Source of the DNA: Escherichia phage phiEco32
DNA length: 64,000 nucleotides
Sequence record: NC_010324.1
Strand: one strand, 5' to 3'
Shown here: positions 54,493 through 56,602 of the stretch, in pieces
Position numbering within the stretch: position 1 is the first letter of the stretch
How the letters are laid out: every line of letters begins with the position of its first letter
Position numbers and translations under genes: made by a program
Notes under the pieces: generated by a model
Databases searched by the model: none
Told to the model about the DNA's origin: nothing
What the model saw: only the letters and a program-made list of their open reading frames with translations

Positions 54493-56523
54493 TTAACCTC
54501 TATTCAATGAACATTTAGGAGAATTACAATAAACTTGATTCATAGAACCAAGCGTACAACTTTCAGCATCGCGCCACGGAATCTGCTTAAAACACTCTGA
54601 GCAGTACCCGAGGGTTGACCACATTGCTTTGGTGAAGTCAGTGCTTCGGTTTCCGTCGAAGCTGACGACAGTTTTGCGGAGAGCTGTTCGTGATTCAGGA
54701 AACACACCTGCTTTCTCAGCAGGTTCCTCCTTTTTTGGCTTAGTCGAGATTGCAAAAATACTGTTGCTACGTTTCTCAACATAAGCATCAACAACATCCT
54801 CCAGAGTGATGCCTGTCTGTTTCGCTGAGGAAGGTAATACAGTCATACGACCGATCATATCTTCAGTTACACGTAAAGCGAATTCAGGACGACGGGCGTT
54901 TGTTGTATCTGTTGCTTTAATCCAGACATAACCATCTTTGATCGTAGCATTAGATACTTTCTTCTTTACTTCTACAGCGCAGACTTTACAGATATCTTCA
55001 CCACGAAGACGACTAAGTTCATCATCGAACTCATTCTCTGTTTTAACTTCACCGCAGATTTCACAAACACCAATAGGAGTTTCCTCCTCTTCTTCCTCTT
55101 TAGGTTTAGTCAAACCTTCCAGACATTCAGGATGCCAATAGCACTGATATGCGAAGACTGCTTTAGGTGCATCCTTCCAATCAATGTGCTTATCACAACC
55201 ACCACAATCACCATGAGAGTGCGCTTCCCAGAATTTACGAGTGATAGTAACACCATTCTTGTTGACGAAACTATCATTCATATCAAAAGGGATATCATCA
55301 TCGAAGTCAGCAGTAGTTGACTCAGGCTCCTTTTTCTCCAGAGATGGGTCAACAAAACGACCTGCTGTGATCACTAAACGGACCATAGCATTGACTTCGG
55401 AGATGCAGGATACTGTCCCACGGTAAACAATTTTAGGGTCTTTCAGTGCATCCTGATAAGCCTTAATGTCTACGTTATGAACATCACCTTCGATATACTC
55501 TTGAGACTTCTCATCGTAGATATAGCCAATCATCTTACCACGAGAAGGAACAGCACCAGCAGTTGCATAAGGAACAAACTCATGCGGAGTGATTTCCACA
55601 GTCATATCGCGGCGAATATCAATGTTTCGATCGCTTGCGATTTTGTTTTGACTTACCACTGCGTTTCTTCGACGAACGTCTGCCGCTGTCACTCCCGGCT
55701 TCGTGTCGTAAGGATTGCTTGTATTGCTTTTTGAGGAACTTTGATAGTTGCTTTGGCTGTAGTTGTTCGAGTAATAACTGGCCCAACGATTGACTACCGT
55801 AAAAACCGGAAGCTCGTGGGCGACCTCTTCAACCAGAGTCATACTATTGTTTGACATATCAAAGATATATTCTGTACCAACTTTACATTCAAAATGCTCA
55901 TCAATACGGTTCTTGTGAGATCTAGAACGCTTCAGAATCCACATCAACATATCTTCTTCAGAAGCACCAAACCAATCCCTGTTACAACGTGCGAGGTGGA
56001 ATGGACGCTCTTCGTTACGGATGATATGAAGACGGTTATCAGAAGCATCATGCCAGATTAAGGTGAAAGCACCATCCAGCTTTTGAATAGTCTCTGCTGC
56101 ACCAATAGTGTTAATAGAGTGGCAGATGTTCTCACTGTCTACCTCGAAGTTTTTGCTGTCAGGTAACAGATCTTGGTCCATCAAGGTTCCGTTATGAACC
56201 AGAGTGATGTTACCATGTTGGAAAGGATGGGCGTTCTTGGCGTTAACTGCACCTTTCGTTGCATGACGGCTGTGACCAACAATCCATGAAGGCGCTACAG
56301 TGTACGCTGTTTCGCCAGTGGTATGCTTCTTGTACTCATCTTGTAGGATGAATGCGAAAGAAGGAAGAGCTTCTTTATAAGTGAAGACTTCCTTAGTGCT
56401 TTTACGCTGACCAAAGATACCGGAGGAATGTTGTCCTCGGAATACTCCAGCATAAAAGAGTTGGTTGAATACGTCTAAATCAGTGCTTGACAGATTACCG
56501 CCAGCTAATACGATGCCACAAAT
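54493..56523 (-). CDS. class-II (Ntn) glutamine amidotransferase domain protein with C-terminal Cys-rich zinc-ribbon region; proposed non-AUG (AUU) start
   Basis: Frame is open 113 codons upstream of the track start and encodes CGIVLAGG, RGQHSSGIFG, VGHSRHATKGAVNAKNAHPF and VHNGTL; the only codon between the upstream stop and the Cys codon besides AAA is ATT, with SD AGGTGGA 7 nt upstream. Confidence 0.55.
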   Translation of the reverse strand: MCGIVLAGGNLSSTDLDVFNQLFYAGVFRGQHSSGIFGQRKSTKEVFTYKEALPSFAFILQDEYKKHTTGETAYTVAPSWIVGHSRHATKGAVNAKNAHPFQHGNITLVHNGTLMDQDLLPDSKNFEVDSENICHSINTIGAAETIQKLDGAFTLIWHDASDNRLHIIRNEERPFHLARCNRDWFGASEEDMLMWILKRSRSHKNRIDEHFECKVGTEYIFDMSNNSMTLVEEVAHELPVFTVVNRWASYYSNNYSQSNYQSSSKSNTSNPYDTKPGVTAADVRRRNAVVSQNKIASDRNIDIRRDMTVEITPHEFVPYATAGAVPSRGKMIGYIYDEKSQEYIEGDVHNVDIKAYQDALKDPKIVYRGTVSCISEVNAMVRLVITAGRFVDPSLEKKEPESTTADFDDDIPFDMNDSFVNKNGVTITRKFWEAHSHGDCGGCDKHIDWKDAPKAVFAYQCYWHPECLEGLTKPKEEEEEETPIGVCEICGEVKTENEFDDELSRLRGEDICKVCAVEVKKKVSNATIKDGYVWIKATDTTNARRPEFALRVTEDMIGRMTVLPSSAKQTGITLEDVVDAYVEKRSNSIFAISTKPKKEEPAEKAGVFPESRTALRKTVVSFDGNRSTDFTKAMWSTLGYCSECFKQIPWRDAESCTLGSMNQVYCNSPKCSLNRG

Positions 56524-56602
56524 TTTCTAATCCACCTGAAGGGTAAACCCTTTCATCTAATTAACCTTTAAATTGTGCCCCTTTATCAGAGGCACCCATT
56601 GA

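Follow-up and report, generated by a model that had tools for sequence, protein, structure and literature searches.

The codons AUU and AUC are read by the initiator tRNA at low efficiency and are discriminated against by initiation factor 3 (IF3), and infC, which starts at one or the other of them in all bacteria, does so for autoregulation (PMC5499595, PMC3592434). In reporters of the thrS-infC junction about half of translation comes from reinitiation (PMC3592434), and pcnB, the gene for poly(A) polymerase I, uses AUU to limit its expression (Binns and Masters 2002, cited in PMC3592434). Here we analyse a 64,000-nucleotide stretch of Escherichia phage phiEco32 (NC_010324.1; hereafter the window), from a phiEco32-like (Kuravirus-type) E. 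coli podophage that has near matches in 95 phage records, 66 of them at least 95% identical over the query. Comparative sequence evidence indicates that translation of a predicted glutamine amidotransferase encoded on its minus strand very probably starts at AUU (56523-56521), the position put forward in an original prediction made from the same DNA. To our knowledge infC and pcnB are the only E. coli genes accepted as AUU-initiated; in a phage, Nivinskas and colleagues reportedly described in 1992 that the product of T4 gene 26* is initiated at an internal AUU. The literature that we searched yielded no paper discussing or testing the ATT start codon of the phiEco32-type amidotransferase.

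The closest known AUU-initiated gene is infC. Its initiator codon, AUU or in some species AUC, is conserved across orthologues and has a functional Shine-Dalgarno (SD) sequence, and the stop codon of the upstream thrS lies exactly 3 nt before it, as UAA GGU AUU, an arrangement matched in the phage by UAG AAA AUU (PMC3592434, PMC5499595). The two junctions differ in that the infC codon serves autoregulation by the gene's own product, whereas the phage product is an amidotransferase, and in that the upstream cistron is a full gene in E. coli but a mini-open reading frame (mini-ORF) of nine codons in the phage. The likeness to pcnB would be that of an AUU start limiting the synthesis of an enzyme, although pcnB is a host gene without a known invariant leader or mini-ORF. 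T4 gene 26* likewise concerns a phage gene product started at AUU, but there the codon is said to be an internal secondary start in a gene with a normal start, whereas here AUU is predicted to be the sole start yielding an active enzyme. What the present analysis adds to the original prediction is an invariant infC-like leader with a mini-ORF, the recurrence of AUU and AUC in the enzyme family, and their absence from a GlmS control.

Coding sequence upstream of the first canonical start

The open frame of the amidotransferase runs on the minus strand from a TAG (56529-56527) to a stop at 54495-54493. Around its beginning the codons read CAG GTG GAT TAG AAA ATT TGT GGC ATC GTA TTA GCT GGC GGT, so that the translation across the start region is *KICGIVLAGG. 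A frame walk bore out most of the anatomy on which the AUU proposal had been built: the listed ORF protein begins at TTG 56184, which is codon 113 counted from the Cys, and the frame stays open further upstream; AAA (56526-56524) and ATT are the sole codons between the TAG and the Cys codon; and the SD sequence AGGTGGA, whose duplex with the 3' end of 16S rRNA has a computed energy of -7.0 kcal/mol, lies 7 nt 5' of the ATT. No in-frame ATG, GTG or TTG was found after the TAG and before this TTG, as had been claimed, but the sense codons in the stretch number 114 rather than the 113 first counted. The ORF started at the TTG, which is the choice of ORF finders and of many annotations, comprises 563 amino acids and lacks the catalytic Cys.

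Profile searches and a structure model identify residues 1 to ~250 as a class-II N-terminal-nucleophile (Ntn) glutamine amidotransferase domain, a predicted glutaminase. Pfam returns PF13522 (GATase_6) at 55 bits, with a cut-off of 27, and PF13537 (GATase_7) at 27.4 bits, with a cut-off of 25, and in the match to PHROG 4736 Cys1 is aligned with profile position 2. Residues C1-G2-I3-V4, R28, H109-N110-G111 and D128 are invariant among seven phage homologues, four of which have a plain ATG-TGY start, and C1-G2, R28, H109-N110-G111 and D128 are invariant among 50 homologues. Profile alignment places R28, N110-G111 and D128 opposite R26, N98-G99 and D123 of GlmS, and in a hidden Markov model alignment to 1xff vhnG is matched to VVHNG and evDsE to ETDTE. 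Searching the PDB with the single sequence gave no matches, whereas a profile search did, to the glutaminase domains of GlmS, PurF and AsnB. The AlphaFold model of residues 1-260 has a pLDDT of 92.9, with residues 2-7 forming the first beta strand, and Foldseek retrieved with it 1xff, 1ao0, 1ecf, 6gq3 and 4zfk at probability 1.0 and TM values of 0.61-0.70, the matched glutaminase domains being those of GlmS, PurF, AsnS and EgtC. The phage domain thus shares with GlmS, PurF and AsnB the Cys1 nucleophile, the Arg, Asn-Gly and Asp motifs and the fold; it differs from them in being only 14-19% identical in sequence and in having Cys-rich modules as its C-terminal partner, not a sugar isomerase, phosphoribosyltransferase (PRTase) or synthetase.

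The codons upstream of the TTG are real coding sequence under strong purifying selection, not a chance open frame. Codons 1-112, within which the peptide CGIVLAGGNLSSTDLDVFNQLFYAGVFR is encoded, carry no stops and no frameshifts across three genera, and the ratio of nonsynonymous to synonymous substitution (dN/dS) over them is 0.10 and 0.08 against two other genera, at a proportion of synonymous differences (pS) of 0.63-0.75, which is near saturation. The N-terminal codon sequence is kept also in phages with an ordinary ATG-Cys start. As the TTG falls within VHNGTL, a conserved motif that is mid-domain in the folded model, a protein begun there would be without the nucleophile and half of the domain. 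The claim that a class-II amidotransferase N-terminus is encoded upstream of the TTG is accordingly upheld by Pfam, the invariant catalytic residues, dN/dS and the structure model.

Start codons in the amidotransferase family

The census of start codons was blind to the codon itself, since the loci were picked out by peptide motifs internal to the protein, with the Cys1 codon as anchor. Among 128 unique phage loci, the codon before the Cys was ATG in 103, ATT in 16, ATC in three, GTG in four and TTG in two. ATT or ATC accordingly occurs in 19 of the 128 loci (~15%), which belong to 12 of the 54 clusters formed at 50% identity and lie dispersed in the tree beside ATG neighbours, and GTG or TTG in six of 128; locus L065, with ATT, is 96.5% identical to L060, L063 and L064, with ATG. 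Relatives with an ATG start have it exactly at the ATT position and carry no propeptide. The homologue alignment suggested earlier as a check therefore has a clear outcome in related phages, with Cys1 conserved and ATG, ATT or ATC at the same position. In a control census of GlmS-type loci from the same collection ATG was found in 63 of 63 (Fisher p of 5e-4 for the difference from the present family).

Every ATT/ATC locus has an SD site ~7-8 nt upstream (-5.8 to -11.2 kcal/mol in the other lineages) and an in-frame stop upstream, an in-frame canonical start being present in L098 only; an in-frame upstream start before the stop occurs only in the Kuravirus-type leader. The leaders of these loci are unrelated to the Kuravirus leader, except in Aeromonas phage BUCT695, which shares it. 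Two further leader families, both from IMG/VR contigs and both occupying the 25 nt before the Cys codon, are AGGAGATGAGAAA-AT[TC], found in L050, L098, L103 and L128, and AGGAGGATAGTnnn-ATT, found in L033, L107 and L109. Within each of them the proteins are only ~40% identical, yet the leaders are conserved around the non-canonical codon. For L058, a metagenomic locus with ATT, a search of IMG/VR gave no close relatives.

In the phiEco32-type lineage itself the ATT and its leader are all but unvarying. When GenBank was queried with 60 nt covering the leader and the first codons, 67 records matched at 100% identity, 28 differed by one mismatch and two Aeromonas phage records were ~94.5% identical; in the four records read directly (KBNP1711, EP335, EK010 and ECBP2) the single mismatch is the synonymous GGC>GGT in codon 2. 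The ATT is thus unchanged in 97 GenBank phage records and, with them, in seven metagenome contigs that carry an identical leader, one of these having the synonymous TGT>TGC at the Cys codon; the conservation extends over three genera. In alignments with KBNP1711, EK010 and ECBP2, which are ~71% identical overall across 3.4 kb, the identical runs at the leader measure 56-58 nt, as against 29-45 nt for the next-longest runs, and ~45 non-coding nt of the leader are invariant.

BUCT695, a phage of a different family, keeps the entire leader arrangement with two substitutions, TTT>TTA and GTG>GCG (F>L and V>A in the mini-ORF). Because its amidotransferase protein clusters with those of GAP52 and 7-11, which are ATG-type phages, the leader may have come by recombination or co-conversion. 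Two tiny ORFs, one reading MDKVLKKITHQGDCWLWTGCINSDGYPKE* and the other a helix-turn-helix-like fragment, look like what is left of an HNH homing endonuclease; in BUCT695 (L009, NC_070977, 1304-1505) they lie between the amidoligase gene and the Kuravirus-type leader. Sequence comparison suggests that the ATT-type leader resembles the GAP52-type leader (TAGATGAAAGGA-TTTTTAGT-ATG) with an insertion of ~16 nt and a change of ATG to ATT, and that this insertion would create both the small hairpin and a new SD site. A pattern scan of metagenomes for intermediates between the two leader types returned identical leaders only.

The leader and its surroundings

Coordinates of the locus are collected in Table 1. 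In 5' to 3' order, the stop of the amidoligase gene (TAA, 56605-56603, minus strand) is followed by a hairpin of 8 bp, AAAGGTTAATTAG, the ATG of the mini-ORF, TAG, AAA, ATT and TGT. The mini-ORF (ATG, 56556-56554) shares the reading frame of the amidotransferase, its UAG lying 3 nt before the AUU, and is kept in three E. coli-phage genera. The original prediction overlooked this in-frame ATG, and with it the alternatives of readthrough and reinitiation.

Table 1. Features of the amidotransferase locus and its leader, in coordinates of the window.
Feature	Position	Strand	Evidence or remark
Full amidotransferase coding sequence, putative ATT start	54493..56523	-	676 codons and stop, 76.2 kDa; same length as SU10_085 (2031 nt)
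Class-II (Ntn) glutamine amidotransferase domain (predicted), residues 1 to ~250	55771..56520	-	Pfam, PDB profile search, AlphaFold/Foldseek
TTG, first in-frame canonical start	56182..56184	-	Frame walk; ORF list
Invariant leader block, longest identical run in the locus	56516..56573	-	Alignment with KBNP1711, EK010 and ECBP2
TGT, catalytic N-terminal Cys codon (Cys1 once the initiator Met is removed)	56518..56520	-	Invariant residue in homologues
ATT (AUU), proposed initiation codon	56521..56523	-	Frame walk, conservation, annotated start in SU10, RefSeq and Bas91
Putative mini-ORF, ATG AAA GGG TTT ACC CTT CAG GTG GAT TAG (MKGFTLQVD*)	56527..56556	-	Sequence; conservation
SD-like AGGTGGA, 7 nt 5' of ATT	56531..56537	-	Sequence; duplex energy
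Small hairpin AAGGG-UUUA-CCCUU inside the mini-ORF	56539..56552	-	Centroid structures
Hairpin of 8 bp between amidoligase stop and leader, possible terminator or RNA stabiliser	56575..56595	-	Folding; compensatory stem changes
Upstream gene, Amidoligase_2 family	56603..57706	-	Pfam PF12224; labelled amidoligase in relatives

Several explanations for the invariance of the leader were tried and rejected. Stable RNA structure is not favoured, since folding energies are no better than those of shuffled sequences (z from -1.8 to +0.2); the small hairpin in particular is no more stable than shuffled sequence (z about 0), and BUCT695 has the palindrome AAGGGTTAACCCTT. An alternative hairpin that would sequester the SD sequence is broken, without compensation, by the two BUCT695 substitutions. 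Rfam gave sub-threshold chance matches only, with no known RNA family and no readthrough element at threshold. The leader occurs once in the window, which speaks against a promoter or repeated element, and it fits neither the sigma-70 consensus nor that of the phage sigma factor phi32_gp36, tAATGTAtA (PMC8948821). A frameshift from the amidoligase gene was discarded, as that gene, at a distance of 80 nt, is read in another frame and the amidotransferase frame is interrupted by stops. ARAGORN found no tRNA, suppressors included, in the window, and no amber suppressor tRNA in the complete genome of phage SU10, which is 98% identical over a 601-nt query and in which only a tRNA-Arg(UCU) was found.

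The stem of the 8-bp hairpin carries compensatory changes in EK010 and ECBP2 (GCGCUC/GGGCGC). Some GenBank records label it a terminator, and its U-tract is weak; were it one, the amidotransferase would need read-through transcription. Amidoligase and amidotransferase belong to the same early gene cluster, which in the phiEco32 type (window 52856-59136, minus strand) comprises a gene annotated as ATP-grasp (no Pfam match here), two small ORFs (one of them DUF7195), the amidotransferase, Amidoligase_2, a protein of 205 amino acids and a COOH-NH2 ligase. Since the start reads ATT and not ATG, the string AUUUGUGG (56519-56523 and downstream, minus strand) holds UUG and GUG codons in other frames that overlap the start and would open two very short ORFs, MWHRISWR* and MASY*. 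The amidotransferase ends in a C-terminal region of 415 residues (54496-55740, minus strand) with three CxxC...CxxC modules, CGGC..CYWHPEC, CEIC..CKVC and CSEC..CNSPKC; these residues have no Pfam match, PHROG 4736 alone covering part of them, and this Cys-rich region differs from the usual synthase partner domains of class-II amidotransferases.

Proposed mechanism, alternatives and implications

Four lines of evidence favour initiation at the AUU. It is the only codon that would give Met-Cys, and thus Cys1 after removal of the Met; the ATG of canonical relatives occupies exactly the same position; no amber suppressor tRNA was found in the window or in the SU10 genome; and, most informative, ATT or ATC stands at that position in many unrelated homologues. 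According to the proposed mechanism the initiator tRNA would read the AUU, placed by the SD sequence AGGUGGA, and removal of the initiator Met would expose the catalytic Cys1. Given that AUU initiates weakly and is disfavoured by IF3, the amidotransferase is likely to be expressed at a low level and in an IF3-sensitive manner despite its good ribosome-binding site, and ribosomes finishing the mini-ORF may add to initiation at the AUU by reinitiating. We infer the decoding of AUU as a start, its modulation by IF3 and the translation of the mini-ORF; for the initiator-tRNA and Met-removal steps we draw on the established biology of AUU starts (infC and pcnB) and of Ntn amidotransferases.

A number of observations weigh against this account or loosen the evidence for it. 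ATT and ATC are synonymous for Ile, and a translated Ile at -1 would also be compatible with the exchange of one for the other, taken by itself. Giant viruses or very large contigs make up about half of the contigs behind the GlmS control, and with a conservative control, from which contigs labelled giant viruses and contigs >100 kb had been removed, the Fisher p is 0.015. In SD strength the ATT/ATC genes surpass the ATG genes only by a small margin (p = 0.059), so that compensation for the weak codon by a stronger SD sequence is a trend only, and BUCT695 has the weaker AGGCGGA before its AUU. Moreover, the mass in the SU10 proteomics table is that of a shortened protein, so that N-terminal peptides could not have been matched, and the conserved, in-frame ATG of the mini-ORF leaves UAG readthrough formally possible in this lineage.

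Were such readthrough the route to the enzyme, translation would begin at ATG 56556 and pass the UAG to give a propeptide of 12 residues, MKGFTLQVD-X-KI, which would be removed autocatalytically as in B. subtilis PurF, the ATT being an Ile codon. Ntn amidotransferases with propeptides exist, and a UAG with A as the next base is comparatively leaky; both changes that BUCT695 has in its mini-ORF are, in addition, conservative. Natural UAG readthrough in E. coli is, however, typically ~1% or less, neither the window nor the complete SU10 genome holds a suppressor tRNA, and the relatives with ATG have it exactly at -1, with no propeptide. Ten loci (L033, L050, L058, L065, L103, L107, L109, L128, L133 and L140) have ATT or ATC before the Cys and an in-frame stop upstream, with no in-frame start from which a propeptide could be read. 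Propeptide processing in B. subtilis PurF and glutamate synthase is another way to expose Cys1 of an Ntn amidotransferase, but it needs a translated propeptide, whereas here a stop stands between the Cys and the one ATG upstream of it, and an upstream start is missing from most ATT/ATC homologues. As AUU/AUC initiation accounts for all of the ATT/ATC lineages and readthrough, for want of such starts, cannot, we regard the latter as highly unlikely. A different ribosome route to the same AUU is termination-reinitiation, in which the mini-ORF is translated, ribosomes stop at the UAG, are tethered by AGGUGGA and restart at the AUU, with de novo initiation negligible. The geometry of a stop 3 nt before AUU is identical to that of thrS-infC, where reinitiation supplies ~half of reporter translation (PMC3592434); mini-ORF, stop and spacing are all invariant; and in the E. 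coli phages the ATG of the mini-ORF is preceded, at a distance of 8 nt, by AAAGG. BUCT695, however, has no SD site before that ATG, an in-frame arrangement would arise by accident with a chance of 1 in 3, and the other ATT/ATC lineages, BUCT695 with its shared leader excepted, have no comparable mini-ORF, the ends of their upstream long ORFs being spread between 75 nt before the point where the Cys codon begins and 13 nt after it. For this family de novo initiation at AUU/AUC thus seems to be enough, and reinitiation as the main route is unlikely, though less so than readthrough.

A product of 563 amino acids from TTG 56184, with the upstream frame a decaying remnant and the N-terminal domain untranslated, would agree with ORF finders and with most database annotations, which start at the TTG or further downstream. 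It would also agree with the published proteomics of SU10, in which gp85, given as 677 amino acids and 99% identical to phiEco32 gp83 in the S1 table, was detected by mass spectrometry with nine peptides and listed at 63.8 kDa (PMC4281155). We compute 63.9 kDa for the TTG form and 76.2 kDa for the ATT form. The listed figure is thus the mass of the TTG form, derived from a database that apparently held the short version of gp85, rather than a measurement of the N-terminus, on which the SU10 proteomics is accordingly uninformative. Given the purifying selection over codons 1-112, the invariance of the catalytic residues and the position of the TTG in the middle of a folded domain, such a truncated product is extremely improbable. 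Still less credible is a sequencing or assembly error with ATG as the true codon. The rarity of ATT starts is all that speaks for it, and the base-call error that the original prediction wished to see excluded is ruled out, and already refuted, by the identical ATT in the 97 independently sequenced phage records and the seven metagenome contigs.

Annotation of the AUU start has been uneven. A coding sequence of 2031 nt from the ATT is annotated in SU10 (KM044272, SU10_085), in RefSeq NC_027395 and in the BASEL phages, and in SU10 it is the only ATT among 125 annotated starts. In a spread sample the first codons were left unannotated in ~32 of 38 annotated records, the shortened versions including those of Paul, which starts at the TTG, KBNP1711, EP335, EK010 and BUCT695. 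The expectation that any automated annotation would truncate the enzyme hence describes most records, and fails for SU10, NC_027395 and the BASEL phages. Most public annotations of the gene are as a consequence without the first 113 or more residues of the catalytic domain. More generally, families anchored on Cys1 offer an annotation-independent gauge of how frequent non-canonical starts are in phages.

A wider interpretation, which we put forward tentatively and consider possible rather than probable, is that AUU and AUC starts have been repeatedly selected in this phage amidotransferase family (19/128 loci, at least 12 clusters and several independently conserved leaders), making translation IF3-dependent so that the gene would read the translational state of the host during takeover. 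The phiEco32-like leader, with its mini-ORF, hairpin, SD sequence and UAG-3 nt-AUU arrangement, would on this view serve as a dedicated translational operator copied from the pattern of the infC junction, and it may bind a factor. The infC codon is a regulatory sensor for IF3, and an early phage gene that combines an invariant AUU with a junction like that of infC can be tested in a tractable coliphage (SU10, or Bas86-94 of BASEL); any IF3 sensitivity of the phage gene would report the host's translational state. A regulatory role of start-codon choice in phage early expression is thus a testable idea, and a gene family in which AUU and AUC outnumber GUG and UUG would show whether phages time or limit expression by start-codon discrimination.

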